Below, piece by piece: positions 6,434-59,726 of a stretch of DNA of 64,000 bases. The translations under genes and the position numbers were made by a program. The notes beneath the pieces are model-generated. The model was not told the DNA's origin and did not search any database. It worked only from the letters and a program-made list of their open reading frames with translations. The number at the start of each line of letters is the position of its first letter. Position 1 is the stretch's first letter. Location: positions 59,618-123,617 of the forward strand of contig JAGNHB010000005.1 in the NCBI GenBank assembly GCA_018001935.1, given 5' to 3'. This DNA comes from Acidobacteriota bacterium. Lineage in GTDB: Bacteria > Acidobacteriota > JAAYUB01.

Positions 6434-6524
6434 CCGGCGAGGGTTCATCCGTGGTTAATAACGCGCGTATCCGCGGAACTTTCCTTTCGTGGAGGAAGCG
6501 CGGCCTGGAGGAGGAATAAATCGA

Positions 6525-21372: not shown

Positions 21373-21398
21373 GGCAACTCTCGGCATGGAGGTGTCCG

Positions 21399-21963: not shown

Positions 21964-21968
21964 AGAAG

Positions 21969-22333
21969 AGAAGGGACGGAAGGACCAAAACGACCAAAGG
22001 GACCAAAAGGACGGCAAAGAAGCCACAGCCCTCAACGGCCCCCTCCCCGCCGCGCCTGCCGCCCCCCGCCGCGCTGCCGGGCCTCGCCGCGCCTGCCGCC
22101 CCCCGCCGCGCTGCCGCGCCCTGTCGCCCCCTGCCGCCCCACTTGCCGCGCCTGCCGGGCCCCGCCGCGCCTGCCGGGCCCCGCCGCGCTGCCGCCCCCG
22201 CCGCGCCTGCCGCCCCCGCCGCGCCTGCCGCCCCCCGCCGCGCCTGCCGCGCCCTGCAGCCCTCTGCCGCCTCTTTGCGGCCCCCTGCCGTCCCTTATGT
22301 CCTTTGGGTCGTTTTGGTCCTTTTGTCCTTTCT
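21969..22333. repeat. GGACCAAA-armed cassette 2 enclosing a ~16-17 nt GC-rich tandem array
   Basis: The left arm is AGAAGGGACGGAAGGACCAAAACGACCAAAGGGACCAAAAGGACGG (21969-22014). The right arm is CCGTCCCTTATGTCCTTTGGGTCGTTTTGGTCCTTTTGTCCTTTCT (22288-22333). The interior is (CCGCGCCTGCCGCCCC)-like units. Confidence 0.85.
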
Positions 22334-22367
22334 CATACGATGTTCCTGCCTTGCGACCGCTTGGCCT

Positions 22368-23174: not shown

Positions 23175-23210
23175 GCTTCCTTCCTTTTCAATCCAGGCCC
23201 CCAACCATCG

Positions 23211-23686
23211 GGGTCGGTATCGGTATCGCAATCGGAATCGGTATGGGTATCGGTATCGGTATCGGAATCGGTATGGGTATCGGTATCGGTATCGGAATCG
23301 GTATCGCTATCGGTATCGCAATCGCAATCGGCATCGCAATCGCAATCGCTCTCGCCCTCGCCGTCGATCTCGCAATCGCACCGCACCCCAGGCCCTTCTG
23401 CCCGCTGTCCTCGGGGGCAAGCCCGCGGCACCGCCCGACCACGGCTTCACACGGGCGCCCCGGGCGCCCCCGTTGCGCCAGGGCCGGTCGCAGCCGCAGG
23501 CGGTTCCCCCGGGCCGTGACCTGGCGCAGGGGCGAGGGAACGGGCGATGCCGGTGGGGATTGCGACTTCCTTGCCGGCTGCGGGAGCGAGAGCGAGGGCG
23601 AGGGCGGTACCGATTGCGATACCGATTGCGATACCGATACCGATACCGATACCGATAGCGATAGCGATACCGATGCCGATGGGAGA
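23211..23686. repeat. Hexamer-word inverted repeat filling the trpB-trpA spacer
   Basis: The left arm is a (GGTATC/GCAATC/GGAATC)n array at ~23211-23380. The right arm is the complementary (GATACC/GATTGC/GATAGC)n array at ~23583-23686. A ~200-nt unique GC-rich core lies between them. Confidence 0.85.
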
Positions 23687-23696: not shown

Positions 23697-24920
23697 TCAG
23701 TGCTCCTTAAGGGTTTGGGGGGGAGGAGGGGGATCGGACATCAGGGCGCGCATCCGGGGCTGGGAGCGGACCTGGTCGAGGTCCTTGTCCCCCCGGCCGC
23801 TGAGGTTGACCAGCAGGAGCGTTCCCGGGGCCGCCGATTCCGTCATCTTCAGCGCGTGGGCCAGGGCGTGGGCCGACTCCAGGGCCGGGATGATCCCCTC
23901 GGCCGCCGAGAGGGCGGCGAAGGCTTCCAGGGCCTCGTCGTCCGTGACGCCCACGTACTCGGCCCGGCCCGTGGCCTTCAGCCAGGCGTGCTCCGGCCCG
24001 ACGCCGGGGTAGTCGAGCCCGGCGGCGACGGAGTGGCTCTCCAGAACCTGGCCGTCGTCGTCCTGCAGCAGGTAGCTGAAAGCGCCGTGCAGGACCCCCG
24101 GCCGTCCCGCCTGGAGGCTCATGCAGTGCTTCCCGGTGTGCAGGCCGCGCCCGGCGGCTTCGACGCCCACCAGCCGGACGTCCGTGTCGTCCACGAAGTC
24201 GGCGAAGATCCCCATGGCGTTGGAACCGCCGCCGACGCAGGCCACGACCGCGTCGGGGAGCCGCCCCTCCGCCGCGAGCACCTGGGCCCTCGCCTCGCGG
24301 CCGATCACCCGCTGGAACTCGCGCACCATGAGGGGGTAGGGGTGCGGCCCCGCCACGGTGCCCAGGACGTAGTGGGTGTCCCCGAAGGAGGCGGCCCAGT
24401 CGCGCAGGGCCTCGTTGACGGCGTCCTTGAGGGTGCGGGAGCCGCTCTCCACGCTCACCACCTCCGCCCCCATGAGCCGCATGCGGAAGACGTTGGGCTG
24501 CTGGCGCTCCACGTCCCGCGCGCCCATGTAGACCCGCGTCTTCAGCCCGAAGAGGGCCCCCGCCATGGCGGTGGCGACGCCGTGCTGCCCCGCGCCGGTC
24601 TCGGCGATGAGGCGGGTCTTGCCGGACCGCCGGGCCAGCAGTGCCTGCGCGAGGACCTGGTTGGTCTTGTGGGCGCCGCCGTGCACCAGGTCCTCCCGCT
24701 TGAGCAGGAGGCGGGCGTTCGTGCCCCGTCCCAGGTTGCGGCAGGCGTAAAGGGGCGTGGGGCGGCCGGCGTAATGGGTCAGGAGATCGCCCAGTTCCGC
24801 CTGGAAGGCCGGGTCGGGGCGGGCCGCGAGGAAGTTGGCTTCCAGTTCCTCCAGGGCGGGGAGGAGGATCTGCGGGACGAAGGCCCCGCCGAAGTCGCCG
24901 AATCTGCCGGATTGTTGCAT
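23697..24920 (-). CDS. trpB: Tryptophan synthase beta chain
   Basis: It has [15 protein letters not shown] (the PLP Lys region) and GGGSNAMG. The length is 407 aa. Confidence 0.95.
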
Positions 24921-25107
24921 GGTGGTGTTACCTCGGTGATGATGCTGAAGGAGACAGGAGACAGAAGACAGAAGTCAGGAACTGAAAGCCGGGGAGGGAG
25001 GGGAGGCGAGAACGCCGCAAGGGCGGAGGGAGGGAAAACGCAAAGGGTGCGAAGGGTGCGAAAAGTGCGAAAAGTGCGAAAGGCCAAGGGGAAAGAGGAG
25101 AGTGATG

Positions 25108-25252
25108 GGAATAATGGAAGAAATGGAAGAAATGGAAGAGATGGAAGAGATGGAAGAAATGGGAGAGATGGGAGAAATGGGAGAAATGGGAGAAATGGGA
25201 GAAATGGGAGAAATGGGAGAAATGGGAGAAATGGGAGAAATGGGAGAAATGG
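25108..25252. repeat. 9-mer tandem array (ATGGAAGAA/ATGGGAGAA), about 16 units, last ~10 perfect
   Basis: The array was read directly, including GGGAGAAAT repeated without mismatch from ~25160 to 25252. Flanking shorter arrays are GTGCGAARR 9-mers at ~25047-25083 and GACAGRA 7-mers at ~24950-24990. Confidence 0.9.
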
Positions 25253-25295
25253 GATCGCGTTGACCATGGTTGACATCTCTTAAACAGTTTTCTCT

Positions 25296-25390
25296 GCCAC
25301 AGAGGCACGGAGGCACGGAGAAACGCACTTTGTATTTCATAGACAAAACATGCTTTATGGTTCTTCTCCGTGCCTCTGCGCCTCTGTGAG
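25296..25390. repeat. CACRGAGG-word inverted repeat with AT-rich loop
   Basis: The left arm is CTGCCACAGAGGCACGGAGGCACGGAGAAACGC. The right arm is TTCTTCTCCGTGCCTCTGCGCCTCTGTGAG. The loop is ACTTTGTATTTCATAGACAAAACATGCTTTATGG. Confidence 0.8.
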
Positions 25391-25435
25391 ATTAAAATCC
25401 GGACTCTTTACGCCCGCATCACAGTTATTTGCTCC

Positions 25436-25528
25436 TGAAACCCGACACCCGAAACCCGACACCCGAAACCTGAAACCCGAAACCTGAAACCTGAAACCTG
25501 GAACCCGACACCCGACACCTGACACCTA
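25436..25528. repeat. 7-mer microsatellite (CCGAAAC/CCGACAC/CTGAAAC)n abutting the trpCF stop codon
   Basis: About 13 consecutive 7-nt units were read directly. Confidence 0.85.
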
Positions 25529-26935
25529 TCCTCTCAATTCCTCGAACAGCCGCAGCAGCAGCCCCTCGTCCTTGACCCCCGGGGCCGACTCCACGCCGGA
25601 GTTGACGTCGAGGGCGAAAGCGCCCAGAGTGGCGGCCTCGCGTGCGTTCGCGGGGCGGATGCCGCCGGCGACCACCAGCCGGTCCCGTTCGGGGTGATCC
25701 CGCAGGACCGACCAGTCGAAGGTCTCGCCGGTGCCGCCGCGACGGCCCGACCGTTGGGTGTCCAGCAGCAGCCGGTCCGCGCCGGACGCCGCCAGCGCCG
25801 GGATCATGATGCCCCGCGCCTCCCGGGCCGCCGGCGCCGGGACCGGGCCTGCCACGCGGTGCGCCTTCCAGACCTCCGCGGTGGGCGGGAGCGCGGCCTT
25901 CAGGGTGCGAACGTACCCGGCATCCTCCTCGCCGTGGAGCTGGACGACCGCCAGGTCCAGGTCAACCACCGCCCAGCGGACCCGGTCGATCGGGGCGTTC
26001 ACGAAAACGCCCGCCCACCGGAGCGGGGCGGCGTCCCGGACCCGCCGGGCCTGCTCCGGCGTCACGCACCGGGGCGACTCGGCCGCGAAGATCAGCCCGC
26101 CGTAGACGGCGCCCGCCCGCCAGGCGGCGGCGGCGTCCGCCGGGGACGTAAGGCCGCAGACCTTCACTCGCCCGAAGACCAGTTCGCGGGCGGCCCGCCC
26201 GGGGTCGGGCGTTTCCATGAGGGAGGTGCCCACCAGGAACCCCCCGGCGAGGCGCCGAAGCCGTGCCACGTCCGCCCGTCCGCGGATGCCCGACTCGCAG
26301 ACGAGGGCCACCCCCGGCGGGACGAGGGGCGCCAGCCGTTCCGTCACGGCGAGGTCGGTGCGCAGGGTCCTGAAATCGCGGTTGTTGATCCCCACGACGC
26401 CGGCGCCCAGCGCCAGGGCGCGCCTCAGCTCGGCCTCGTCGTGCACCTCCACGAGGGTGTCCTGGGCGAGGGACCGGGCCGCCTCCAGGCAGGCCGTCGC
26501 CGTGGGGTTGTCCAGGACGGAGAGCATGAGGAGGACGGCGTCGGCGCCGTGCAGGCGGGCCTCGTACACCTGGTAGGGGTCCACCACGAAGTCCTTGCAG
26601 AGGACGGGGAGCGAAACCCGCTCCCGGACCCGGCGGACGTCCGCCAGGCTCCCCTGGAAGAAGGGTTCGTCGGCCAGGACGGAAATGGCGTCGGCGACGG
26701 GGTCGAAAGCCTCCGCCAGCCGGACGGGGTCGAAGTCGGCCCGGATCAAACCTCGGGAAGGGGACGCCTTCTTGCACTCGAGGATGAAGGCGGTCCGGCC
26801 GGGGCGGAAGGCGGCGCGCAGGCTTCGGTCCGACGGCCGAAGGTCCGCGGAGAACGCCGCCAGCGGCCGTCGCGCCATCCGCTCCCGCACATCCTGCCGC
26901 TTCCTCTCCAGGATCTCCTCAAGCACCATGATCAT
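25526..26935 (-). CDS. trpCF: Bifunctional indole-3-glycerol-phosphate synthase / phosphoribosylanthranilate isomerase
   Basis: The N-terminal half has ILECKKASPSRGLI (the TrpC motif). The C-terminal half has VKVCGLTS...GGLIF (TrpF). The length is 469 aa. Confidence 0.9.
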   Translation of the reverse strand: MIMVLEEILERKRQDVRERMARRPLAAFSADLRPSDRSLRAAFRPGRTAFILECKKASPSRGLIRADFDPVRLAEAFDPVADAISVLADEPFFQGSLADVRRVRERVSLPVLCKDFVVDPYQVYEARLHGADAVLLMLSVLDNPTATACLEAARSLAQDTLVEVHDEAELRRALALGAGVVGINNRDFRTLRTDLAVTERLAPLVPPGVALVCESGIRGRADVARLRRLAGGFLVGTSLMETPDPGRAARELVFGRVKVCGLTSPADAAAAWRAGAVYGGLIFAAESPRCVTPEQARRVRDAAPLRWAGVFVNAPIDRVRWAVVDLDLAVVQLHGEEDAGYVRTLKAALPPTAEVWKAHRVAGPVPAPAAREARGIMIPALAASGADRLLLDTQRSGRRGGTGETFDWSVLRDHPERDRLVVAGGIRPANAREAATLGAFALDVNSGVESAPGVKDEGLLLRLFEELRG

Positions 26936-28848: not shown

Positions 28849-29075
28849 GAAACCACGAACCACACGAACGGGAAACCGGATTGAAACCACGAAATACACG
28901 AAATACACGGACGGGGAGCCGGATGCTGGACCGAACGGTGGAGATTATCTTTTTCAATTTATTAGAGATCACGTTGTCACTCCTGGGTCCATTTTTCGTG
29001 TATTCCGTGTATTTCGTGGTCCAAACTTCTTCTGCAATTCTCCCCGTTCGTGTGGTTCGCGTGGTTCGTGGTTCC
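28849..29075. repeat. CACGAA-word inverted repeat (MITE-like, ~65-80 nt arms, AT-rich centre) filling the trpE-trpG spacer
   Basis: The left arm is GAAACCACGAACCACACGAACGGG...GAAACCACGAAATACACGAAATACACGGACGG. The right arm is TTTTCGTGTATTCCGTGTATTTCGTGG...CCCCGTTCGTGTGGTTCGCGTGGTTCGTGGTTCC. Half-copies lie at ~5534-5563, ~37466-37522 and ~52784-52811. Confidence 0.85.
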
Positions 29076-29095
29076 ATTGTCGTGTCCCTGAATTC

Positions 29096-37202: not shown

Positions 37203-37750
37203 CGCTGGCTCCGTCCGAAAAAAATCGGGCCCACCGTCCGGTGGGCCCAAGGGTTTGGCTGAATCGGTTCCCGACGCCTTACACTACGGCCCACTCGGCT
37301 CGCGCCGCCAGTGCCACCAGTGAAGGGTCGGGGTCGATATCGCGCTCATAACGCCCCCACGATAAAAGAACGCTTCCGCCGTTGTCAAGGGAAAAGTTGG
37401 GAGGGCCTGGGCCACGGGCGACACGAAGCGCAAACGCGTGGCCCAAACCGGGTGAACCGGAACAGAAACCACGAAATACACGGAATACACGAACGGGAAA
37501 AGAACCACGAACCACACGAACGAAGAATTCTGAATTCAGGAGGCAGGAGGGGGAGACAGCCGTCAGGAGGCCGTCGTCCGGAGGCAGGGGAAAGGATGAG
37601 GATGTTTGGCCGGTTGACTTTTCTCGGGGACGCCGCTTCCCTGTGCCTTCGTGCCTTCGCGAGAACGTCCGGGAGCTTTCTCCAGGAGGCGGCGTGGTCC
37701 GGTGAAGGCGAGCTTTCGTGCCCCTTGGCCGCATCCGGGGGCGATCCGTT

Positions 37751-37827
37751 TTTCTTGGCGATCTTTGCGCCTTGGCGAGATCAGGAACCGGATCGGCTCT
37801 CGCCAAGGCGCAAAGCGCGCCAAGGAA
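37751..37827. repeat. CGCAAAG/CGCCAAG-word hairpin (~30-bp stem)
   Basis: TTCTTGGCGATCTTTGCGCCTTGGCGAGA pairs, across a loop, with CTCTCGCCAAGGCGCAAAGCGCGCCAAGGAA. The pairing was read directly. Confidence 0.8.
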
Positions 37828-37847
37828 AACCGCAAAGCGCCTACAGC

Positions 37848-39752
37848 CTATTCCGATTCCGAACCCGTGGGGTCGTGGGCGGCTGGGCCGCCTTGCGGGG
37901 AACGCATCGGGAAGGGGCTGCGAGGCGGGGCGGCGGCCCGGCGGACCCTCCCGGCGAGGAGTCGGAAGGTCCACCCCAGCGTGCGGCGCAGGGTCGGGAC
38001 CATTCCCACCATGCCGAATACCTGGACGGCCGCGTCGGCGAGGTAGGCCTGGAGCCCGTGGGCGAGGCGTCGGGCGGCGCGCTTGCGCCAGGGCCGCCGG
38101 GCGTCGCCCGCCGCGGGGCGCCCCGCCCCCGACCGGGCCACCGGGCGCCAGCTCTTCGGGGCGACGAGGGCCCAGAGAAAGCGGAGCGGGTTGAAGAAGT
38201 ACGCGTACGCGGCCAGCAGGTTGAGCTGCCGGGCCCCGGGCCGGGCGTGCCGGGTGGCGATCACGTGCATCCCGCTGGTGAGGTGCGGCCCCACGGCCCG
38301 GCCCCCCGCGCCAGCGAGGACCATGCCCGACTCGTAGGTCCCTTCGTAGGACTTCGACCCCGGGGCGGGCGTCAGCACGAGGACCTGCAGGTACACCGCC
38401 CCGGCGCGCCGGAGCCGGCCCACCTGGTTGAGGACCCCGCGCCCCCCGCGGAAGGTGAACAGCGGCTGGTCGTCGTGGTGCATCAGCATGGGGACGGGGA
38501 AAATGCCGTTCTCCCGCAGCAAGCGGAAGGCCTCCACGGTCCGGCCCGGGGACTGCCCCTTGTCCACCAGGGAGCCGCTCATGTCCTCGACGCCCAGCCA
38601 GAGTGCCCAGACGCCCGCCCGGCGCACGAGGGGGAGGTGTTCCTTCATCGCGAGCACGTCATGCACGGAGGCCTCGGTACCGAAGCGGATCTTGCGGTGC
38701 GCCACGGAGCCGGACCCGACCCGGCGGGCCAGGGTCTCCACGATCTCCAGCGCCCTCCGGCGGTCGGCGAAGAAGTTGTCGTCCGTCCCGAAGATCAGCC
38801 GGATGTGGTAGGTGTCGAACAGCCGGCCGATGTCCTCCGCGATCCGCTCCCCGCTCTTGCCGCGGAGCTTCCCCTGGTTGTAGGCGGGGATGGGGCAGTA
38901 GGGGCAGTGGAACCGGCAGCCGGCGGTCAGGACCAGCGAGGCCAGGGGCGAGTGGCGTTTGACCTCCCCGGCGGGGAGGGCGGCAGGGCCGAGGGTGGGC
39001 CGGGAACCCGGGGGCTCCAGGGCCCGGTACCCCAGGGTGACGTCGGGCAGTTCGTCCAGGTCGCCCAGGAGGCGCTGCACGCCGGTGTCCACCAGTTCCC
39101 CGATCCGGCCGTGCGCGTCCGTCCGGGCGTACACCAGGCCCTGCACCCCGTCGAGGGCGCCGGCGTCCCGGGCGCGACGGAAGGCCGAACGCAGGGGCTC
39201 GCCCCCGGCGCGGAACGACAGCAGGACCTCCAGCAGTTCCAGGAGGACGTACTCCTCGCCGGTGACGGCGACGTCGGCCCCCCACGGGTCGTCGGGGTTT
39301 GCCCCGAAAACGCTCCACGGTTCGTAGATGACCCGGGGGCCCCCGGCGACGACCAGGGGCCGCTGCCCGGCCTCGATGCGGCCGGCGTCGCGGATCATCG
39401 CTTCCAGCCGTGCGGCGTGGAGCAGGGCGCCCGAGACGAGGAACAGGTCGGGGACGGCCCCGTCCAGGCGCATCATCGCGGGCCGAAACCGCGGGTTCCA
39501 CTGCCCCAGGACGATGCGTGTGCGCTCAAAGCCCGAGTCCAGCAGCGCCGCGCCGACGGCCCGGACACCCGCGGGGGCCATCTTCGTGTCGGCGTAGAGG
39601 TAGGGCAGCATCCGGCTCCGGGGGTCGAAGGCGAACGCGACCACCGACCTCAGTCCGTGCGCGGGGGCGACCCGGCGGAGCCGCTCCCGGAGCCGGGTCA
39701 TCTCCCCCGGCTTGAGCAGTTCGTCTCCGCGGTCGCGTCGGGGAAGTTCCAC
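37848..39752 (-). CDS. Radical SAM protein with N-terminal B12-binding-like domain and basic/hydrophobic C-terminal extension
   Basis: It has a CRFHCPYC (CxxxCxxC) cluster motif at about residue 290, followed by a TIM-barrel-like region (IFGTDDNF, LWLGVED). The length is 634 aa, and the start is uncertain (M1 or M18). Confidence 0.75.
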   Translation of the reverse strand: MELPRRDRGDELLKPGEMTRLRERLRRVAPAHGLRSVVAFAFDPRSRMLPYLYADTKMAPAGVRAVGAALLDSGFERTRIVLGQWNPRFRPAMMRLDGAVPDLFLVSGALLHAARLEAMIRDAGRIEAGQRPLVVAGGPRVIYEPWSVFGANPDDPWGADVAVTGEEYVLLELLEVLLSFRAGGEPLRSAFRRARDAGALDGVQGLVYARTDAHGRIGELVDTGVQRLLGDLDELPDVTLGYRALEPPGSRPTLGPAALPAGEVKRHSPLASLVLTAGCRFHCPYCPIPAYNQGKLRGKSGERIAEDIGRLFDTYHIRLIFGTDDNFFADRRRALEIVETLARRVGSGSVAHRKIRFGTEASVHDVLAMKEHLPLVRRAGVWALWLGVEDMSGSLVDKGQSPGRTVEAFRLLRENGIFPVPMLMHHDDQPLFTFRGGRGVLNQVGRLRRAGAVYLQVLVLTPAPGSKSYEGTYESGMVLAGAGGRAVGPHLTSGMHVIATRHARPGARQLNLLAAYAYFFNPLRFLWALVAPKSWRPVARSGAGRPAAGDARRPWRKRAARRLAHGLQAYLADAAVQVFGMVGMVPTLRRTLGWTFRLLAGRVRRAAAPPRSPFPMRSPQGGPAAHDPTGSESE

Positions 39753-39875
39753 GTCCTGATCCTCCCTTCAATCCTTGATGCGGTCGTAAAAAGTACCATC
39801 ATCCTCCGGGTGATGGCTCGAGCAAAAGTCTTACAGGCACTTTCCCGCTCGTTTTCCGACTTTTTGCGAACCCGT

Positions 39876-40223
39876 CAAACCGGAAAGAAACCACGGATGG
39901 ACACGGATCATCCGGACGCTCCAGAATAAAGAAACAGGCGGTCTCAATCTCTCGCCAAGACGTAAAGCCGCCAAGCCTCGCAAGGCCTGAACCGGAAAAA
40001 GGGGATCCCTTTGCGAGGCTCTGCATCCTGGCGTCTTTGCGAGAGACCTTTGACGTCGATTCCGGACCCGGATCGGCACAAGCGGGGCGTTCTAGCCTTG
40101 GGGCCTGACGGACGACGCTGCCGGGATTCCCTCCGTCCCTTCATCGGGTTTCCCTGCTCCGAAAACGGTGGGTGATCACCGACGATCTCAAATCTTGCTC
40201 ATTTTACCAAAGATCTTACTTCG
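39876..40223 (+). repeat. Two-copy ~350-nt structured non-coding element, copy A
   Basis: It aligns by eye with 54602-54959 in the same orientation. Shared blocks are ACACGGATCATCCGGACGCTCCAGAA, the long CGCAAAG-word hairpin, ACGTCGATTCCGGA, CGGACGACGCTGCCGGGATTCCCT and GATCTCAAATCTTGCTCATTTTRCCAAAGATCTTACTTCG. Confidence 0.85.
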
Positions 40224-40709
40224 AAGGGCCCGCACCATCGGCGGCCCTGCAACCGGGGAAGCGCCGGTGCTTGCCGACTGGGGCGTCACGGTGACCGCCG
40301 TCCCGATGATAGCGTGAGAACCTCCCGGGTGCAACGTCCGAGTCGGATTCAGGCCGCCGGCACCCCGGGAGAACGCGGGAGGCGATCCCGGGAGCGCCGT
40401 CGGGCGCAAACGGGGGGATCCGCCTGCAGGAGTGACGCGGCGGAATCCGTTTCCGCTTCTTTGACATGAAGGGGATCACCCGCGCGGCTTGCGGATGAGG
40501 TGAGGAGAAGACCGGTGATTTCTCCCAGTTGTTCGGTAAAAAATCCACTTTTGCTTCAGAGATGGATCGATTAGTTTTTAATCGACAAGGGGCTTCACCT
40601 GAAGCGGCCCCACCGGGACAGGCCTGGCGGTTGACGCTCTCGCCGCTCCCCGGCGGCAGCGGTTGCGCAAAGGATGGGTGCATCGGGTTCAAGGGAAGGA
40701 GGAACGCTG

Positions 40710-42833
40710 ATGAGACTTGGTAAATTCATGATCTGGTTGTGGATTTTCATTGCGGTCCCTGGCGGGGATCTTCTGGCCGGCAACAGTTTCTGGAACGGGA
40801 ACGGGCCTTGGGGGGGAGTGATCACGCACCTGGCCGTCTCGCCCGCCGCACCGGAGACAGTGTTCGCCTCGACCTCTCCGGAGGGCTTGTTTCGGAGCCA
40901 CGACGGCGGGCACTCCTGGGCCGCGGTCGATCTCGGTGATGTCAAGCCGGAGGTGACGTGCCTGGCCTTCAACCCGTTTAACCCGGCCATCGTATATGCC
41001 TCGGTTCCCGACGCCGGCCTCCTCTGGAGCACCGATTCCGGCGCCAGTTGGAGCGTTCTGGCTGACCGGTTTGCGAACATGTCCATCGAAGCCCTGGTTT
41101 TCGATCCTGTCATACCCGGCACCCTCTATCTCGGGACGTGCAGTGGGGCAATGTCGGGAATCTACCGGAGCCATGACGGCGGCATGACCTGGGATCTGAT
41201 TTCGGAAGGGTTTGCCGAGCTTCGGGTCACGTCCCTGGTGATCGATCCGGACAACCCGGCCACGCTCTACGCGGGCACCCGTTCCAACGGTGTCTTGAAG
41301 ACCCTCGACAGCGGCGCCAATTGGGTGCCGGTCAACACGAATCTGTTGTCCATGGACATCAAGACCCTGGTCATGGACAGGTCCACAACCAGAGGCTCGA
41401 CGTCCCTGCAGCCTGTTCTGTATGCGGGAACGGCCTCGGGGCTCTTCCAGACCAGCGACGGAGGCGGCCATTGGTCACCCGCCGGCGTCGGCATCCCTTT
41501 CACGGTTATCGATTCGCTGGCGGTTCCCTCCGGATCGCCCGGGATTTTCTATGCGGGGACACGCACGCTGGGTTTGTATCGGAGCACGGACGGTGGCGAT
41601 CATTGGGTTTCGGCCAATAACGGCCTCAGATCCCTGTCGATCAACGTGATCGACACAACCCATTCCGCCAGGCTCTTCGCCGGGACCGACGGGGGACTCT
41701 TCCAGTCGATGGACGAGGGCGACAACTGGAGCAGTTCCGATGCCGGCATTCCGGCCACGACGATCCTCGACCTTGCCTTCGACCCGAAATCCCCATCGAC
41801 GGTCTACGCCGCAACATGGGGGGAAGGGATATTCAAGAGCGTAGACGGGGGCGAAAGCTGGGCTCCCTCCAGCCAGGGGTTGACGGAATTCAACCTCGCC
41901 TCGGTGGTGGCTGACCCCACGAACCCGTCGTTCATCTACACGGCTTCGATTCAGGGTGTCTTCCGGAGCAATGATGCCGGGGCATCCTGGAACACCGCGA
42001 GCACCGGTTTGCCGGAGTGGGCGCTGCCTTCCTGCCTGGCCCTTGACCCGTCATCACCCGGGACTCTCTACGTGGGGGGATTCAAAGGGGTTTTTAAAAG
42101 CCTGGATGGCGGCGGGCAATGGTCTGCTGCCAGCCCGGACTGGGGTGTTGGGATTGTCGGCACGATCCTGATCGACCCCGTTGATCCATCCATCGTCTAT
42201 GCCGTCTGGAACGGCTTACTGCCCCCCTACGATCAGAGCCGGGTGTACCGGAGCCGGGATCGGGCAAACACCTGGACTTCCATGAGTGCCGGGCTGCCCC
42301 AGGAGGGCATCTTGTCTCTCGCTCTCGACCCCTCCGACCATGGCATCCTCTACGCCGGGACGAAGAATGCCCTCTGCCGGTGGAGTGGCGATGGCCCCTG
42401 GCAGAAGGTATGCGCCGACTTCCCCTCCGACGGCCTCTTGAATTCACTGCTCGTGGATCCGTCCCGTTCCAACGTGATTTACGCCGGGACCGACAAGGGC
42501 ATGTGGAAAAGCGTCGACGGAGGCTGCCGGTGGACGGTCTTTGACCGGGGTCTGAACAACCATTCGGTGGATGTGATCCGGATGGATCCCGCGAATCCGG
42601 CCCGACTCCTCGCCGGGACCTCCGGGGGAGGTGTTCTGTCCCTTACGCTGATCCCGGGGGACCTGGATGGGAACGGCTGCGTCGAAGCCGCCGATGTCAT
42701 GCTCCTGAACGCATTTCTGTCCGGCAGCACGGCCTTCCTCACCGAATTCGCCACCCAGGCGGACCTGAACATGGACGGCCGCGTCGATGCGGTGGATCTT
42801 GCACTTCAGCTGCGAGAGGTCGTCACGATTTGA
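40710..42833 (+). CDS. Secreted Asp-box (BNR) beta-propeller repeat protein with C-terminal type I dockerin
   Basis: It has a signal-like N-terminus, MRLGKFMIWLWIFIAVPG. About 12 SxDxGxxW Asp-boxes are present (SHDGGHSW, STDSGASW, TSDGGGHW, SVDGGESW and others). The C-terminus carries duplicated Ca-binding dockerin segments: GDLDGNGCVEAADVMLL and ADLNMDGRVDAVDLALQL. Confidence 0.85.
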   Translation: MRLGKFMIWLWIFIAVPGGDLLAGNSFWNGNGPWGGVITHLAVSPAAPETVFASTSPEGLFRSHDGGHSWAAVDLGDVKPEVTCLAFNPFNPAIVYASVPDAGLLWSTDSGASWSVLADRFANMSIEALVFDPVIPGTLYLGTCSGAMSGIYRSHDGGMTWDLISEGFAELRVTSLVIDPDNPATLYAGTRSNGVLKTLDSGANWVPVNTNLLSMDIKTLVMDRSTTRGSTSLQPVLYAGTASGLFQTSDGGGHWSPAGVGIPFTVIDSLAVPSGSPGIFYAGTRTLGLYRSTDGGDHWVSANNGLRSLSINVIDTTHSARLFAGTDGGLFQSMDEGDNWSSSDAGIPATTILDLAFDPKSPSTVYAATWGEGIFKSVDGGESWAPSSQGLTEFNLASVVADPTNPSFIYTASIQGVFRSNDAGASWNTASTGLPEWALPSCLALDPSSPGTLYVGGFKGVFKSLDGGGQWSAASPDWGVGIVGTILIDPVDPSIVYAVWNGLLPPYDQSRVYRSRDRANTWTSMSAGLPQEGILSLALDPSDHGILYAGTKNALCRWSGDGPWQKVCADFPSDGLLNSLLVDPSRSNVIYAGTDKGMWKSVDGGCRWTVFDRGLNNHSVDVIRMDPANPARLLAGTSGGGVLSLTLIPGDLDGNGCVEAADVMLLNAFLSGSTAFLTEFATQADLNMDGRVDAVDLALQLREVVTI

Positions 42834-43013
42834 TCGCGCGATACGGTCCGGCCGCAAGAGGGGGGAGAAAGATGGATCGGGCCGTCCAATCGTTTGAGGA
42901 ACGGAAACGGGGACGGGATGCGAACCGGGCGGCAACTGCGATTTGTCCCATGGAATCGATGATTTTTCGGCATTGTCGGCCGGAGGGAATTCTGATACCC
43001 TCTGGGTGCGGCC

Positions 43014-43043
43014 TTGACTTCAATCGCGGTGCTCGGTTAGACT
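43014..43043 (+). promoter_or_regulatory. Candidate promoter TTGACT-18 nt-TAGACT upstream of the 43070 gene
   Basis: The hexamers were read directly, ~27 nt upstream of the ATG. Confidence 0.3.
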
Positions 43044-43069
43044 GGATTCAAACAGCGGCGGCGGAAACC

Positions 43070-43666
43070 ATGCCCACCATCGACGAAATGCTCAACGACT
43101 TCGAAAAGAGGATCCGGGTCCTCAAGATCGAGTACGACGTGTTTTTCGTCGGGGGCAAGAAAACGCCGCCCCTCAACCTGCGGCAGAGCCTGGAGACCCT
43201 CATCCAGCGCATGCTGGAGGAGCAGCATTACACCTTTGCCCAGAAGTTCCGCTTCAACACCCTGGTGGCGCGTTACAACGCCTACCGGGAACTCTGGCGG
43301 AAGAAGACGGCGGAGAAGGAGGAGAAGGGCATCCTCCGGGACGAGAGGGAGCTTCAGCAGCTCATCGACCGCGGCCTGACCCAGGCCGCCGAGGCGGACA
43401 AGCCCAGCGACGAGTTCACCTTCGTGACCGACGACCCCGCCCGGCACCGGGACCAGGCCAGGGAGTTCTTCAAGTTCATCCAGGATGCCCACCTCTCCGT
43501 GAGCGGGCAACCCTTCAAGACGGACTTCGAGAAATTTTTCGACCTTCTGCAGGTGAAAACATCGGAATTGTGTGGAAAGTACAAGAGTCCCGCCGTGGAG
43601 TTCCAGGCGGTCATCGACCGGAAGGAGAACAAGGTGAAGTTCTCCGCCAAGGTGAAGAAGACGTGA
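43070..43666 (+). CDS. Conserved hypothetical helical protein (resembles N-terminal region of MXAN_5187-type proteins, from memory)
   Basis: The ATG at 43070 gives MPTIDEMLNDFEKRIRVLKIEYDVFFVGGKKTPPLNLRQ...FRFNTLVARYNAYRELW. The composition is protein-like. The upstream part of ORF 42830.. is unlikely to be coding. Confidence 0.6.
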   Translation: MPTIDEMLNDFEKRIRVLKIEYDVFFVGGKKTPPLNLRQSLETLIQRMLEEQHYTFAQKFRFNTLVARYNAYRELWRKKTAEKEEKGILRDERELQQLIDRGLTQAAEADKPSDEFTFVTDDPARHRDQAREFFKFIQDAHLSVSGQPFKTDFEKFFDLLQVKTSELCGKYKSPAVEFQAVIDRKENKVKFSAKVKKT

Positions 43667-43831
43667 TCGGAGGATCGGGAGGGGATGAAACCGTTTGACG
43701 GCTGCCGGGTTTAACCTTCGGGCGGAAGCCGCTCCCCCCCGTGGTGGGCGGAAGCGGCGGTTCAGAAACCGGCCTGCGGGTTCCCCGGGGCCCGTTCGCG
43801 GGCGCACTCCCCACCGAGTAAAAAAACGATA

Positions 43832-43858
43832 TTGCTTCGTTCGGATTTTTTGTATAAT
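43832..43858 (+). promoter_or_regulatory. Candidate promoter with extended -10 (TTGCTT-15 nt-TGTATAAT)
   Basis: TGTATAAT lies at 43851-43858, 30 nt upstream of the ATG at 43888, in a locally AT-rich stretch. Confidence 0.4.
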
Positions 43859-43887
43859 GAATTTTATCTCGTTTGCGAGGTGATCGT

Positions 43888-45822
43888 ATGAAAAAGAACC
43901 TGGCCGTTTTGTTCCTGCTCCTGTTCTGTGCCGCCCTCGTGCCCGCACAATCGGGGCCGTTCACACCCGCTGCCGCGGTGACCCTGAACATCACCCCGAG
44001 TTCCCCGACCATGGGGGAGGACATCACGGTCGAGGTTTACGTGAACCTGACCGGCGTCACCAATTCCGGTTCCACGGCGGCCGCCCTGGGCGGTTTCTGC
44101 GTCCCCGTCGCCTTCGACAACACGCGCATGCAGCTGAAAACCGTGGTCAAGGGCGCCGCTTCCCAGTTCACCGGGAACATCACCTACACCGACCTGCCGC
44201 GCGCCAACGCCCGCGGGTTCGTCACGGTGGTGAACGCCCAGACCTCCGCCGGGGTGCCGACGGGGAACGTCCACGTGGCCACCCTCACCTTCGGCCTGAC
44301 CGAGGCGGGGAGCATGCTGTTCAACGTGAACTCCGCCCGGACGGACCACGAGGGTTCCCTGGCGTCCACTTACGACCCGGGCCACGGCGGCGGGCCCGCC
44401 CTGATCACCTACAACGACCAGAACACGACCCTGAACGTGGGCGCGGGGACCAACAACTACCACCTGATCTTCCCGGCGTTCGTCTCCAAGTCCTCGGGTT
44501 CGGTGTTGGACTTCCAGGGCGTGACCCTCGTCAACGAGTCCGCGGCGGCCGCGGCGATGACCTTCCGGGCGTACGACGCCACCGGGGCGCTGATCACCGC
44601 CGCCGGGATGGTCAACCCCAACACCCTGGCCACCCCGCTGCCCGCCAACAACCAGTACGTCCGAATGGCGGAGAACCTCTTCGGCGCCTCCGCCGCCCTC
44701 AACATCGAGCAGGGCTGGATCGACGTGGAGTCGCCGGTCCACAACATCAGCGGCTTCTTCCTCCTCGGCCACCTCGTCGGGGCCTCCGTGACCCAGATGG
44801 ACGGCGTGGACGTCAGCCACATCTCCACCTCCCGCCTGATCTTCCCGCTGCTCTGGAAGGAAGCCACCCGTGACACCAAGGTCACGGTGGTCAACCCGTC
44901 CGCCACGCCGGCCGCCGGGACCCTCGAGGTGATGAACGCCGACGCGTCCGTGTTCAGCACCACCCCGATCAACGTCCCCGCCCACGGCATGTACGAGGCG
45001 ACCTTCCCCGCCAACACCCTGGCCGGTGACGGTTACTTCGACGTGACGCTGACCTCCGGCGCGGCCACCGGCCTGGAAACCTTCGGCAACACCAACGCCA
45101 TGGCCGTCCTGGCCGCCATGGACGGGAACCTGATGTCCAACATCCTGTTCGCCCCCCAGATCGAGACGGGTCTCCTCGGCATCCGCTGGTTCACCGACAT
45201 CAACGTGGTCAACCCGGGCACCGAGGCGGCCAACGTAACCTTCCGCCTCTACAACAACACCGGCGCCGAGCAGGTGACCGCCGCCACGCGGACCATCCAG
45301 CCGGGCGCCCAGCTCCGGATCCAGGCCCACACCCTGTTCGGCCTGCCCGACCCCCTGACCGCCACCAACGCCGTCACCGGCTACCTCAAGGTGGAGAGCG
45401 ACAAGGGCCTGGTCGGCAACGTGACCTTCGGCGACGCCCAGAACGGGACGATCCTGTCGAGCCTCCCGCTCATGTCCACTGCCAGTGCCAAGCGGCAGAC
45501 CTACTTCGACCACGTCGCCCTGGGGACCATCAACAACGTCACCTACTACACCGGCATCGCCATGGTCAACCCCAGCAAGGACCGGACGGCCCACGTCACC
45601 GTGACCCTCTACAACGCCACCACCTTCGCCGAGGTCGGCCAGGCGACGGTGAACATTGCCCCCGGCAACCGCTTCATCAACATGGTGTCGGCCATCGACC
45701 CGACCTTCAACGTGACCCAGTTCGGCGGTTTCGTGAAGATCACCTCGGACGTCGAAGTGTACTCCTTCATGCTCTTCGGCGACGTGGCCTCCGTCTTCAT
45801 GTCCGCTGTGCCCGTCCGCTGA
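43888..45822 (+). CDS. Secreted protein with N-terminal cohesin-like domain followed by repeated beta-sandwich-like modules
   Basis: It has a signal peptide, MKKNLAVLFLLLFCAALVPAQS. Residues ~30-170 (ITVEVYVNL...GGFCVPVAFDNTRMQLKTVVKG...VHVATLTFGL) follow the cohesin sequence pattern; this is by-eye inference. The remainder is Thr/Asn/Val-rich and beta-like. Confidence 0.75.
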   Translation: MKKNLAVLFLLLFCAALVPAQSGPFTPAAAVTLNITPSSPTMGEDITVEVYVNLTGVTNSGSTAAALGGFCVPVAFDNTRMQLKTVVKGAASQFTGNITYTDLPRANARGFVTVVNAQTSAGVPTGNVHVATLTFGLTEAGSMLFNVNSARTDHEGSLASTYDPGHGGGPALITYNDQNTTLNVGAGTNNYHLIFPAFVSKSSGSVLDFQGVTLVNESAAAAAMTFRAYDATGALITAAGMVNPNTLATPLPANNQYVRMAENLFGASAALNIEQGWIDVESPVHNISGFFLLGHLVGASVTQMDGVDVSHISTSRLIFPLLWKEATRDTKVTVVNPSATPAAGTLEVMNADASVFSTTPINVPAHGMYEATFPANTLAGDGYFDVTLTSGAATGLETFGNTNAMAVLAAMDGNLMSNILFAPQIETGLLGIRWFTDINVVNPGTEAANVTFRLYNNTGAEQVTAATRTIQPGAQLRIQAHTLFGLPDPLTATNAVTGYLKVESDKGLVGNVTFGDAQNGTILSSLPLMSTASAKRQTYFDHVALGTINNVTYYTGIAMVNPSKDRTAHVTVTLYNATTFAEVGQATVNIAPGNRFINMVSAIDPTFNVTQFGGFVKITSDVEVYSFMLFGDVASVFMSAVPVR

Positions 45823-45843
45823 CGCGGACGTGATACTTCCGAA

Positions 45844-45870
45844 CCCCGCCCCGCGGCGGGGTTTTTTTTT
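45844..45870 (+). terminator. Rho-independent terminator
   Basis: The stem is CCCCGCC / GGCGGGG, the loop is CCGC, and T9 follows. It begins 22 nt after the stop codon at 45822. Confidence 0.85.
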
Positions 45871-45890
45871 GCCGGCCCCGCCCATGGAGG

Positions 45891-46358
45891 ATGAGCGAGC
45901 CCATGAGCACCGCTGCAAGCACGACGCGATCGGACGCGCTGGACCGGGCGGCGGAGGCGCTCCTCGCCTCCCCGTACACGGCGGCCCTGACGGGCGCCGG
46001 CGTCTCGGTGGAGTCGGGGCTCCCCGACTTCCGCTCCGCCGACGGGCTCTGGACCCGCTACGACCCGACGGTCTACGCCCACATCGGGGGCTTTCACCGT
46101 CACCCCGAGAAGATCTGGACCTTCGTGAGGGAACTGATCGTTTCCTTCGGGGATGCGGCGCCCAACGAGGGCCACCGCGCCATGGCCGCGCTGGAGGAGG
46201 CCGGGAGGCTCCAAACCGTCGTCACGCAGAACATCGACAACATCGAGATGAACCTGGAGGAGACCTCCCTTACCCACTCTCTGACCGATATCTTCATCCA
46301 GGGCCCCTTCGGCCGGACCATGCCGGAACTGGCCCGCCGGGTCCTGGCTCGGGCCTGA
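45891..46358 (+). pseudogene. cobB: Truncated Sir2-family NAD-dependent deacylase (N-terminal ~100 aa conserved, catalytic His and Zn ribbon missing)
   Basis: It has GAGVSVESGLPDFRSADGLW and VVTQNIDN motifs. After these the sequence diverges (IEMNLEETSL...) and stops at 155 aa. No LHG or CxxC...CxxC segment is found in any frame downstream. Confidence 0.55.
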
Positions 46359-46605
46359 GCGCCTCCGGGTGTACGCGCCTTCTGCCGGAAGGCGCCGTTG
46401 CGCGGGACGCCGAATGCAAAGGCGAATTGGGCGGGTGACCCTTCTGGCGAGCGTCCCGCAAGGATGCCATGCGGGCGGTTTCGAGAAAGTCGATTCAACT
46501 ACAAAGAACGCAGAGAACGCAAGTGTGACGGAACAGCGGAGGTGGCGATGCCGGCACACGGGAGCGCGAAGATCCGATCGCGGCTGCCCATCTACGGCAA
46601 AGGCG

Positions 46606-52638: not shown

Positions 52639-52660
52639 ATCTTGACATCCCCGTGGTGAC

Positions 52661-52731
52661 CCTTCGCACGCTTTGCGCCGGGTGAGCGCCGGCCCGGATC
52701 CTGATCTCGCAAAGGCGCAAAGCTCGCAAAG
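52661..52731. repeat. CGCAAAG-word hairpin downstream of murJ
   Basis: CCTTCGCACGCTTTGCGCC pairs with GGCGCAAAGCTCGCAAAG. A CACGAA-family half-arm follows at ~52784-52811. Confidence 0.7.
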
Positions 52732-52849
52732 AAAACCGGATCGCCCCGCCTTTCGGAAGCTCTCTCGCAAAGGCCCGGAAGCCCTTCGTGTATTCCGTGT
52801 ATTTCGTGGTGCCTTCCCCGGTTTGTCCAGGTTGGGACAGACGAAGGGG

Positions 52850-54304
52850 TCAGCGGTCGGGGGTTTCGGGGAGGCAGGCGCGGCAGATGGTGTCCCCCGG
52901 CTTGAGGGGGGCCCCGCAGAAGAGGCACTTTTCGGGGGTTTTGTCCTTGAGGGGCGCGCGGGATTTCCGCTTGTCGCCCCCGGCGGCGGTGCGACGCTGC
53001 AGGACCGCCTCGCAGCGCCAGACCAGGCCCTGGATCTCCGGGGCGGTCTTGTCGATCCGCGCCCGCCACGTCACCTCGTCGTAACGGTCGAGCAGGTCGA
53101 GGACGCGGCCGGCGCGTTCGGGCCCGCCCTTGACGAACCGCTCCAGGGAACGGTAGGCGAGCTTCCGGAGGTCGGCCACCGTGGTGGTGAAGGTGCACAG
53201 GAGGGCCAGCAGGACGGCCTGGACCCGGCCCGAGATGTCCTCGCCCGTGAGCTGCATCTGCTCGAGGTAGAACGCGAGGCCGTCCAGGACTTCCGGGGAA
53301 GGGGACTCGAAGAAGGGGGTCACGATGTCCGACTGCTCCGGGTGGAGCCGGAAGAGCATCTTGTCGCTGTTGGCCTCGTCCACGAAGGGGGCGTCGTCCC
53401 ACTCCATGTAGAAGTAGGTCCAGCACTGTGGGCAGCGCCGCATGTGCGGGCCGATGGCCTCGATCCGGCGGGCCGCCTCGGGGAACTCGGCGGAGAGGGC
53501 CCGGAAGGTGATGGAGTCCGGGAGGGCCCGGCAGACGGGGCAGTTGGACCGGAGGGTGTTCTCGCAGCCGCTCAGCATGGCCTGGAGGTGGGGGTCCTTG
53601 TCGAGGCCCCGGGCCCCGAGGGCCTCCCGGACCGCGTCCAGCCGTTGCCGGTCTTGGGCGCCCAGGGCGGAGAGCGTGGACATGATGGTGACGAAGGCGT
53701 CGCTGTTCCGGTTGATCACCCCCAGCGCCTGGGTCAGGGCCGGGATGGCCGGGGTGATGTCGCATCCCTTCCGCCGGTTTTCCGCAAAGAAGCGGGCCGC
53801 GCGGTCCACCTTCACCGGGTGGCGGGGGGCGTCGAGCAGGGCCTCGAGGTGGGCGGGGGCCTTCTCGGTGAAGTCGGCCGCCAGCTTCCGGATGTAGCTG
53901 AGGGCGACGGCGGTTCGCCGGGCGCCTTCCTGGCGGCTCAGGCGGGTCAGGGTGATCTCGTCCTCGGAGCCGTCGACGCGGTGCTCGTAGTCGAAACGCC
54001 ACGCGTACAGGGTCCCGCAGTCGGGGCACTCGAGCAGGCAGTGGTTGGGGTGGCTGGTGTCGGTGTCGAAGTAGGGGGCGCCCAGGACCCGGAGGCACTT
54101 GAGGTTCCGGGGAAGGGTGTCGGTCAGCATCTGCCCCGCCTTCCACCGGGCCCATGATCGGTCGGCGATCTCCCGGCAGAGGGGGCAGGCGGTGTGCGGG
54201 TGGCGGTGCGTTTCGCCCGGCCCGGCCGCGGAACGGGGTCTCCGGCGGGGTTTGCCCCCCGGGCCCGAGGCGTCCGGATCGGTCGGATGGTCTTTTTCGC
54301 TCAT
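52850..54304 (-). CDS. Hypothetical protein with several CxxC pairs (zinc-ribbon-like) and a helical core
   Basis: The ATG at 54304 gives MSEKDHP. The CxxC pairs are CPLC, CPDC, CPVC, CPQC and CLFC...CRAC. The composition is protein-like and I recognise no family. Confidence 0.6.
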   Translation of the reverse strand: MSEKDHPTDPDASGPGGKPRRRPRSAAGPGETHRHPHTACPLCREIADRSWARWKAGQMLTDTLPRNLKCLRVLGAPYFDTDTSHPNHCLLECPDCGTLYAWRFDYEHRVDGSEDEITLTRLSRQEGARRTAVALSYIRKLAADFTEKAPAHLEALLDAPRHPVKVDRAARFFAENRRKGCDITPAIPALTQALGVINRNSDAFVTIMSTLSALGAQDRQRLDAVREALGARGLDKDPHLQAMLSGCENTLRSNCPVCRALPDSITFRALSAEFPEAARRIEAIGPHMRRCPQCWTYFYMEWDDAPFVDEANSDKMLFRLHPEQSDIVTPFFESPSPEVLDGLAFYLEQMQLTGEDISGRVQAVLLALLCTFTTTVADLRKLAYRSLERFVKGGPERAGRVLDLLDRYDEVTWRARIDKTAPEIQGLVWRCEAVLQRRTAAGGDKRKSRAPLKDKTPEKCLFCGAPLKPGDTICRACLPETPDR

Positions 54305-54601
54305 GGTCTCATCGTGAAAAACCGTGCCCGCCCTGGTCGGCGGGCGGTGGAACCGTGGCCGTGAACACGACCCCAGCATACCCGCAAGCGGGCCCTTTGT
54401 CAAGGCTCGACGTCGAGGCCGTGTCAGTGCCGTGCCGCTCCGGCGGCCCGCGCGGCGCGGTCAAAACGGCGATCCGGGCCTGCGCGTCGCACGCCGCATG
54501 GCGGGCAGGAGTTTTTCCTGTACCGTCGCGGATCCCGTCGCGATACCGATAGCGATACCGATGCCGATAGGTCACTCTCCGAACCTGCAGCCCAACCCGG
54601 A

Positions 54602-54959
54602 CAAACCGGGAAGAAACCACGGATGAACACGGATGGACACGGATCATCCGGACGCTCCAGAAAAATAACAGGCGGTCTTTACCTCTCGCAAAGGCGCAAA
54701 GACGCAAAGCCTCGCAAAACCGGAACCGGAAAAGGGGGATTCCTTTGCGAGGCTTTGCGTCCTGGCGTCTTTGCGAGAGACCTGATACGTCGATTCCGGA
54801 ACCGGATCAGCACCAGTGGGGCATTTTAGCCCCGTGGCATGCGGACGACGCTGCCGGGATTCCCTCCTCCGTCCCCGCATCGGGTTTCCCCGCTCTGAAA
54901 GCGGTGGGAGCCCACCGATGATCTCAAATCTTGCTCATTTTGCCAAAGATCTTACTTCG
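54602..54959 (+). repeat. Two-copy ~350-nt structured non-coding element, copy B
   Basis: See copy A. Copy B carries one extra CACGGATGAA word and a better-paired central hairpin: CTCTCGCAAAGGCGCAAAGACGCAAAGCCTCGCAAA against TTTGCGAGGCTTTGCGTCCTGGCGTCTTTGCGAGAG. Confidence 0.85.
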
Positions 54960-55029
54960 TAGGGACTACAGCCCACAGCCTATCAACCTCCCCCATCGGC
55001 TTCTCCCCCGGATTTCCCCGCCGAATCGC

Positions 55030-55058
55030 TTGACAGGCACACCCCCGAGTGCTAGGCT
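55030..55058 (+). promoter_or_regulatory. Candidate promoter TTGACA-17 nt-TAGGCT for the gcv operon
   Basis: A perfect -35 lies at 55030-55035. The site is ~45 nt upstream of the gcvT GTG. Confidence 0.4.
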
Positions 55059-55101: not shown

Positions 55102-56202
<1,101 letters not shown>

Positions 56203-59621: not shown

Positions 59622-59726
59622 ATCTTACCCTGGCCTGGCGGAAACCGGGGGGCTGGGTGAGGAAGGCTGCGGGTTGAAGGCCCGGTGGCGGCTTTCCCCC
59701 CGCCGGGGCTCCCTCGGGCGGTGGCC

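Follow-up and report, generated by a model that had tools for sequence, protein, structure and literature searches.

The DNA analysed here is a 64,000-nucleotide (nt) stretch of contig JAGNHB010000005.1 from an Acidobacteriota bacterium (the window), in which a non-coding element of about 360 nt occurs twice in the same orientation. Copy A (39869-40228, plus strand, 360 nt) lies between a YgiQ-like radical SAM gene (37848-39752, minus strand) and a BNR/Sortilin and dockerin gene (40674-42833, plus strand), and copy B (54594-54964, plus strand, 371 nt) lies between an orphan gene (52850-54304, minus strand) and gcvT (55102-56202, plus strand). These neighbours were assigned by open reading frame (ORF) calling based on third-codon-position GC content (GC3) and by Pfam, and the assignments agree with an earlier note on this DNA, which had placed both copies between divergently transcribed genes. 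The two minus-strand neighbours (radical SAM and orphan) are mutually unrelated, no gene family is common to both sites (radical SAM, dockerin, orphan, gcvT), and there is no similarity between the flanks of sites A and B. The product of the orphan gene has a single homologue among 5.8 billion proteins. A gene-specific leader or riboswitch was rejected, because the genes beside A and B are unrelated.

The similarity between the two copies reaches a few bases beyond the boundaries first given (39876-40223 and 54602-54959), and the coordinates used here are those of the modules. In a MAFFT alignment of A and B that included their flanks, column identity was 88% and similarity ended at both edges. 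The alignment of the element only had 354 columns, with 45 substitutions (27 transitions and 18 transversions) and 16 gap columns, corresponding to 87.3% identity (the earlier estimate by eye was 80–85%). By blastn inside the window the two copies matched with E = 8e-79, far above chance, and a repeat search of the window reported the pair as families D10 and D14. The description of two copies in the same orientation was therefore upheld, as was the fixed order of the listed modules, every one of which was present in the same order in both copies. Relative to copy A, copy B has one additional CACGGATGAA word, a 3-nt insertion and small indels. On the alignment and on the folding results given below, copy B is the more intact of the two and copy A the more decayed.

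The element consists of three parts, namely a left-end module, a hairpin of about 110 nt built from CGCAAAG words, and a 185-nt segment with an AT-rich patch at its end. The left-end module reads AACCCGG-ACAAACCGGG-AAGAAACCACG, followed by two or three CACGGATGNA words (short form AACCCGG..ACCACG, also written AACCCGG..ACCACGGATG). In copy A this module is AACCCGTCAAACCGGAAAGAAAC followed by two CACGGAT words (39869-39911, plus strand), and in copy B it is AACCCGGACAAACCGGGAAGAAAC followed by three (54594-54647, plus strand). The long hairpin is nearly perfect in copy B (54674-54782, -72 kcal/mol) and imperfect in copy A, where CGCAAAG and GCCAAG words are found (39940-40048, -61 kcal/mol). 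It is followed by the right-half segment (ACGTCGATTCCGGA ... CGGTG..CACCG in copy A, 40053-40183, plus strand; 54787-54919 in copy B, plus strand) and by the AT-rich tail (40184-40228 in A, 54920-54964 in B). On the minus strand, the tail of copy A reads TTGGTA-17-GATCGT and TGGTAAAAT, which are promoter-like, and that of copy B reads TTGGCA-17-GATCAT with TG before the second hexamer. A promoter scan reported a promoter-like site in the tail of copy B, from 54946 to 54918 on the minus strand, as a consensus match only, and made no report for the tail of copy A.

A sensitive search of the window with copy B, together with nhmmer on the window and the relatives' loci, revealed that the left ~200 nt of the element is made of recurrent modules. 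Left-end modules with other words (CACGAAATA and others) were found in the window at 28872, 37439 and 52839-52782, and hairpins of related CGCAAAG/GCCAAG words at 3809-3985, ~972-1015, 37738-37830 and 52681-52775. In addition, a solo array of CACGGATG words lies in reverse orientation at 5656-5686 (minus strand; 31 nt, 97% identical to copy B 54614-54644). When nhmmer --max was run on the window and all relatives' loci examined, the right 185 nt was found only in A and B, and nhmmer profiles built from the right half or from the complete element gave no further right-half copy in this DNA. These matches suggest that the first two parts are modules widespread in the intergenic DNA of the lineage, and that the third is private to A and B.

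A comparison with relatives was informative for site A. A homologue of the radical SAM protein with 91% identity was found on Logan contigs L126 and L127. The former is the nearest relative contig and is collinear with the window, with genes about 90% identical at the DNA level (L126 191-3617 corresponds to window 46397-42933, 3623-3676 to 40349-40295, and 3760-5711 to 39821-37870). The 473 nt of the window that hold copy A (39822-40294) correspond to 83 nt in L126. When the 360-nt element was removed, the remaining flanks of site A aligned weakly to L126, with the right junction between ..CCGGTTTG and ACGGGT... Since the L126 site is collinear and lacks copy A, this copy is a presence/absence difference between close relatives: the element is present here and absent in the closest relative.

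A second difference lies close by. Window 40350-42932 corresponds to 5 nt in L126, where the BNR/Sortilin and dockerin gene with its flanks is missing (2583 nt); the GC content of this segment is ~62%, compared with 68% for the window. The segment is a single-gene insertion, 120 nt from copy A, and this promoter region is therefore an insertion hot spot.

Several contigs end at or within the element or its modules. L126 ends inside CCCCAACCCGGACCCACCGGGAGAAAACCACGGATGAACACGGATGAACACG, 35 nt past the stop codon of the radical SAM gene, in sequence that shares 90% identity with copy B's left end; a relative's contig carrying the orphan gene (L132) ends in the same left-end module, just past the stop codon; and a same-strain contig (L133) begins 13 nt before the end of copy B. 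The element's family is thus present at other sites in the relative; judged from assembly behaviour, these contig ends fit repeated or hairpin DNA. Named homologues were ~60% identical and had mixed labels, with Planctomycetota, Phycisphaerae, Thermoguttaceae and Lentisphaerae recurring among other phyla. These labels by themselves pointed, tentatively, to a lineage in or near Planctomycetota; the assembly is classified in Acidobacteriota. No record of the dockerin or the orphan protein was found by exact sequence look-up.

In three contigs whose radical SAM protein is ~70% identical (L138, L139 and L141), a nested inverted repeat has matched outer arms that consist of CACGGATG words. This unit lies at L138 4684-4868, L139 3975-4159 and L141 ~6795-6970, upstream of the same 404–410-amino-acid gene of unknown function, and has outer arms of three CACGGATG words, inner arms of AAATTCAACGCAGAT.. 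and an AT-rich core of ~55 nt. Against the L138 unit, that of L139 aligned at 137/201 in the same orientation and, better, at 153/189 after reverse complementation; the whole nested unit is therefore flipped. This could reflect an invertible switch, or else an inversion that took place between the two arms.

The 14.4 kb between A and B encodes LpxD, MurJ, RsmD-like, DnaJ-TPR and SIR2 proteins, and this DNA is ordinary chromosome and no island. The possibility that the copies are att-like or long-terminal-repeat-like repeats bracketing an island was rejected, since window 42933-46397 is collinear with L126 and housekeeping genes lie between the copies.

At site B, both neighbouring genes have sigma-70-like promoter-like sites of their own. 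That of the orphan gene (TTGACA-17-TATGCT, 54375-54403, minus strand) lies outside the element and is conserved in L132; that of gcvT (TTGACA-17-TAGGCT, 55030-55058, plus strand) begins 66 nt past the end of copy B, and was read by eye at a score below the scan threshold. As both sites lie outside the element, copy B would occupy dead space between back-to-back promoters.

The earlier note had proposed that the element is conserved at the level of nucleotides or structure, and had described it as multi-hairpin. Taken whole, copy B was far more stable than its shuffles (z = -8.0 on the plus strand and -5.6 on the minus strand), and copy A was no more stable than its shuffles (z = -1.1 on both strands). 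When the element was folded by parts, only the ~110-nt CGCAAAG-word hairpin was significant (z = -7.8 in B and -3.9 in A); the 140-nt right half with the short hairpins folded no better than shuffles (z = -1.3 in B and +0.2 in A). The multi-hairpin description consequently holds for the long hairpin and fails for the short ones of the right half.

When the minimum-energy structure of copy B was imposed on copy A, the changed pairs comprised 21 broken, 12 kept and no double compensatory pairs, compared with 16.1 ± 2.4 broken pairs expected from a position-shuffled null, and the minus strand behaved alike. RNAalifold on the two sequences gave one double change on either strand, which was not above expectation. 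Within the long hairpin, seven differences between A and B were read from the alignment in the 5' arm and two in the 3' arm, none of them compensatory. All of these pairing tests rest on two sequences, which gives them low power for covariation. The excess of broken pairs does not bear out conservation at the structure level, and that the A/B differences ignore the predicted stems is half of what the earlier note had named as telling against its own proposal.

The differences are also evenly spread along the element. With 46 differences over 353 positions, the longest identical run was 34 nt, and a run of at least 34 nt was obtained in 29% of random placements (P = 0.29); the number of identical runs of at least 20 nt was likewise unexceptional (P = 0.22). 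Because the differences are evenly spread and the longest run is within chance at 13% divergence, the near-identical tail, which had been singled out as conspicuous, needs no special explanation. No gathering-level Rfam match was found in the window, searches of the two element regions in E-value mode gave only E > 1, and ARAGORN reported nothing in the element; these results are in line with the earlier failure to match it to a riboswitch or known small RNA. An intrinsic terminator at the left end was also considered and rejected, as the predicted stem of five pairs, two of them G-T, is formed by the word repeat itself and is unconvincing. Given the excess of broken pairs, the even spread of the differences, the unstructured right half and the lack of an Rfam family, there is no sign of selection for RNA structure, and a structured-RNA reading of the element is not supported.

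Neither did the element show signs of coding. In six-frame translation no frame stayed open in both copies, in agreement with the earlier observation that the ORFs crossing the copies are not conserved in frame. A small protein gene was rejected, since the ORFs of the conserved tail have only 4 and 14 codons and the 14-codon ORF has both start and stop only in B. A concatenated six-frame translation of copy B, meant to catch spurious ORFs called over further copies, gave no match at E ≤ 1e-3 among 5.8 billion predicted proteins.

Taken together, these results show that the 360-nt unit was copied in full into two or more intergenic sites that are unrelated to each other, and that the copies diverged afterwards by ~13% through changes that are even and blind to RNA pairing. 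On balance, the evidence tips slightly towards the element being a lineage-specific, non-coding, mosaic dispersed repeat, of the kind of bacterial interspersed mosaic elements (BIMEs), BOX elements or miniature inverted-repeat transposable elements (MITEs), which would spread as DNA and then decay. This reading is favoured because the flanks are unrelated, the element is absent from L126, its end module occurs elsewhere, the divergence is blind to structure, the hairpin has decayed in copy A, and the position is harmless. We therefore place it among the dispersed mosaic intergenic repeats, a known kind, as a new family that belongs to none of those already named.

The route of such spread could be a transposase acting in trans, or recombination primed by shared word modules. 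The element would be tolerated between back-to-back promoters because insertion there disrupts nothing. Effects on neighbouring genes, such as DNA bending, hairpin extrusion or a stray minus-strand promoter in the tail, would be secondary and not the reason for conservation. The lack of terminal inverted repeats and of a clear target duplication argues against a classical DDE-type MITE, which would leave either trans mobilisation by a tyrosine (HUH-type) transposase, in the manner of REPINs or of IS200/IS605, or recombination between word modules.

Some observations weigh against a mobile dispersed repeat. Only two full copies were found, and the large scans used unspecific AT-rich k-mers from the tail. 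There are no terminal inverted repeats, as one end, AACCCGG..CAAACCGG, lacks complementarity to the other, ..CTTACTTCGNAGGG. No direct repeat is common to both flanks of either copy, the empty site in L126 being too diverged for junctions to be placed at base level, and at most a microhomology of ACGGGT was seen at one junction of site A. That divergence also leaves a precise deletion in the relative compatible with the data. Pfam scans, which covered a part of the window ORFs, revealed no transposase. Finally, on the minus strand both copies present a promoter-like AT-rich patch, a long hairpin and a T-rich run, which is the layout of a small transcription unit.

With respect to further copies, a 20-mer of the tail gave four chance matches in genome contigs, in Leptospira, Bacillus and Ruminococcus, the k-mer being short and AT-rich. 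An 18-mer of the tail gave chance matches at 120 or more metagenome loci, and blastn of the element to 120 loci gave no match longer than 42 nt. Three viral scans returned chance matches or nothing, and blastn in distant mode against phage and plasmid records found no match. With respect to mobility, none of the inverted-repeat pairs listed for the window joins the termini of the element, and the window ORFs scanned included no gene for a REP-associated tyrosine transposase (RAYT), TnpA or TnpB. A literature search for repeats of such kind in Planctomycetes returned nothing specific.

The layout on the minus strand raises the question of whether the element is a small RNA gene or a long structured leader. 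Its promoter would lie in the AT-rich tail, and a transcript of ~250–300 nt would run through the right half and either end at the CGCAAAG hairpin and a U-rich run or read into the downstream minus-strand gene. The promoter-like sites TTGGCA-17-GATCAT with TG (copy B) and TGGTAAAAT (copy A) are consistent with this, as is the significant long hairpin, about 5 nt beyond which the minus strand reads UUAUUUUUCU in copy B and UUUCUUUAUUCU in copy A; moreover, the minus strand faces a gene at both sites. However, each candidate promoter is good in one copy only, the proposed body of the RNA (the right half) is no more structured than shuffles, broken pairs exceed expectation with no compensatory doubles on the fold of B, and no Rfam family matched. 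There is no relationship between the downstream genes, a conserved promoter belonging to the orphan gene itself is present, and a relative lacks the element at site A. We therefore consider a minus-strand RNA unlikely.

Alternatively, the element may be a protein-binding DNA platform that was copied between promoter regions. The phased 9–10-nt words (CACGGATGNA and CGCAAAG) would be candidate arrays of binding sites for a conserved DNA-binding protein, such as a regulator, a nucleoid protein or a recombinase, and the unit would act on the divergent promoters by binding, bending or looping. The word period is near the helical repeat of DNA, and both copies lie in the same orientation between back-to-back promoters. 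The retention of CACGGATG words in L138, L139 and L141, as arms of the nested repeat upstream of one gene, and the flipped unit of L139 also point in this direction. Against it, the word array in A and B is without an inverted partner, the word count differs (two and three), the hairpin words have drifted in A, and the relative shows that the element can be dispensed with at site A. No candidate protein was identified, and nothing separates binding sites from inherited repeat sequence. Such a platform seems to us quite improbable.

Tn7- and Mu-type ends are multi-site transposon ends. That A and B are what is left of a single end of some larger mobile element (an insertion sequence, transposon or integrative element), with the word array as a transposase-binding end and the AT-rich patch as an inward or outward promoter, is very doubtful. 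The short direct-repeat array at one terminus only does resemble multi-site ends, and the lack of inverted terminal repeats and of a clear target duplication would fit a fragment. However, the right boundary (..CTTACTTCGNAGGG) is common to A and B, and truncations that arose independently would hardly coincide there; the Pfam-scanned ORFs of the window include no transposase or integrase; housekeeping genes fill the 14.4 kb that separates A from B, and its A-proximal part (42933-46397) is collinear with a relative, so that the copies bracket no island; and phage and plasmid records show no similarity.

The dispersed-repeat interpretation has to be seen against a window that is full of matched inverted arrays of 6–10-nt words, also between trpCF, trpB and trpA and between sdhC and sdhD. 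The trp genes are on the minus strand (trpCF 25526-26935, trpB 23697-24920, trpA 22368-23231) and are separated by spacers of 470–600 nt. These spacers (23207-23682 and 24920-25526) contain tandem 6–9-nt words, among them inverted ATCGGT/TACCGA arms of ~150 nt, GAAATGGGA repeated 17 times and GAAACCC repeated 12 times. The two Sdh_cyt genes are likewise separated by an array, of CGACCC words, at 15911-15957. In the same region, ARAGORN placed a tRNA-Arg(ACG) at 15380-15455 (minus strand) inside an sdhD-like ORF; this is probably a false positive, since no tRNA came up when the window was searched with Rfam at gathering level.

Three units (20617-21375, 21968-22334 and 59719-60134) follow one design, with 5' arms of GGACCAAAA words and 3' arms of TTTTGGTCC words, flanking GC-rich tandem arrays with units of 27 and 20 nt, 19 nt and 17 nt, respectively. 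Four further word hairpins (4400-4560, 28850-29090, 37439-37830 and 52660-52840) have a lead-in of ..AACCGG..ACCAC and words such as CACTAAT, CACGAAATA and CACGAACCA; their arms match within an element, and the words differ between elements.

The solo CACGGATG array at 5656-5686 adjoins a low-GC gene pair (5535-5700 and 5706-6460), which encodes a nucleotidyltransferase (Pfam NTP_transf_2) and a protein that is HEPN-like by position only. The pair is flanked by direct repeats of TCATCCGTGGTT(T)AATAA at 5675-5692 and 6443-6460, and therefore resembles a cassette that has inserted where the word array ends.

In a relative with ~70% identity (L128, GCA_040768985.1), one spacer at 12780-13210 holds four direct copies of CACGCCAAGGCGCGAAGACGCCAAGCG followed by TTCTTTTTGTCAATGGAATG, and further word-type inverted repeats are present at 7591/7867 and 5385/5767; the word-repeat habit is therefore lineage-wide. 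This uncultured, GC-rich lineage packs its spacers with matched inverted arrays of short words, even inside the trp and sdh clusters. Short-read assemblies of the lineage probably break at the word repeats, whose arrangement changes even between genomes with 90% gene identity, and these repeats may drive variation of promoter regions, inversions and the insertion of gene cassettes.

It is possible, if doubtful, that the element is one visible piece of a larger system, so far undescribed, in which modular word-hairpin elements occupy intergenic DNA throughout the lineage. As we would tentatively outline it, such a system would have a constant lead-in (..AACCGG..ACCAC) followed by tandem 7–10-nt words, specific to each element and matched between its arms, around AT- or GC-rich cores. 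In three relatives, at least one word unit has been kept ahead of one and the same gene, and one of the three has it in flipped orientation. If these elements were active mobile units or invertible switches with a dedicated recombinase, or if a word-reading protein bound to them, the repeat of 360 nt would count as a composite member with cargo, and could bring a promoter-like patch to new promoter regions.

With regard to the dispersed-repeat reading itself, what appeared to be a two-copy multi-hairpin RNA behaves as a neutral, insertion-polymorphic intergenic repeat. Pursuit of a riboswitch or small RNA is therefore not indicated without transcript data.

Among known repeats, BIMEs share several features with the element, being non-coding, strictly intergenic mosaics of motifs in fixed order with imperfect palindromes, and lacking terminal inverted repeats. 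BIMEs also lack target duplications, and no clear one flanks the copies here. They occur between genes and inside operons, as do the word repeats of the window in the trp and sdh spacers. Repetitive extragenic palindromes (REPs) are palindromes of 20–40 bp with a GTAG or CGTC tag (PMC3733652). Unlike in REPs and BIMEs, the palindrome here is ~110 nt long and made of 8–9-nt tandem words, and the unit has a 185-nt private segment; a CGTC is found near the hairpin, where it does not serve as a tag on any short stem-loop.

The BOX elements of Streptococcus pneumoniae (boxA-boxB(n)-boxC) are modular and intergenic, with a variable internal subunit and strong predicted secondary structure. The element resembles them in being modular with a variable number of subunits (here two or three CACGGATGNA words). 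However, boxA and boxC are partly complementary and give inverted-repeat-like ends, whereas the ends of the present element are unrelated, and there is no sequence similarity.

MITEs such as the Correia/NEMIS elements of Neisseria, RUP and ERIC are, like the element, short, non-coding, dispersed, and present or absent between close relatives. Correia elements are inserted near promoters and may carry promoter-like ends. MITEs are defined by terminal inverted repeats of 15–30 bp and a target-site duplication (PMC3733652). The element has no terminal inverted repeats of this length; it resembles MITEs in its lack of coding and in its size, although its 360–371 nt are slightly above their usual range of about 70–300 bp.

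REPINs (PMC3116915) and palindrome-associated elements derived from IS200/IS605 form hairpins and have no inverted terminal repeats, as is the case here; they also have no target duplication, and none is clear in the element. Their mobilisation in trans by a single-copy tyrosine (HUH-type) transposase would be compatible with the features of the element, which differs from REPINs in that these are doublets of ~100 nt made of a 25-nt REP. The flanks of A and B, two copies only, yielded no conserved target tetranucleotide.

The short tandem repeats of cyanobacteria and the TAACTGA repeats of Beggiatoaceae (PMC4679880) are intergenic arrays of 7–10-nt words, with several word types and many arrays per genome, and are the closest described parallel to the word arrays of the left half and of the spacers. 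They are mostly simple direct arrays, whereas the words here form matched inverted arms around AT- or GC-rich cores, within a longer unit. Overall, by analogy, the element seems most like the BIME/REP mosaics and BOX, and MITE-like in its presence and absence between relatives.

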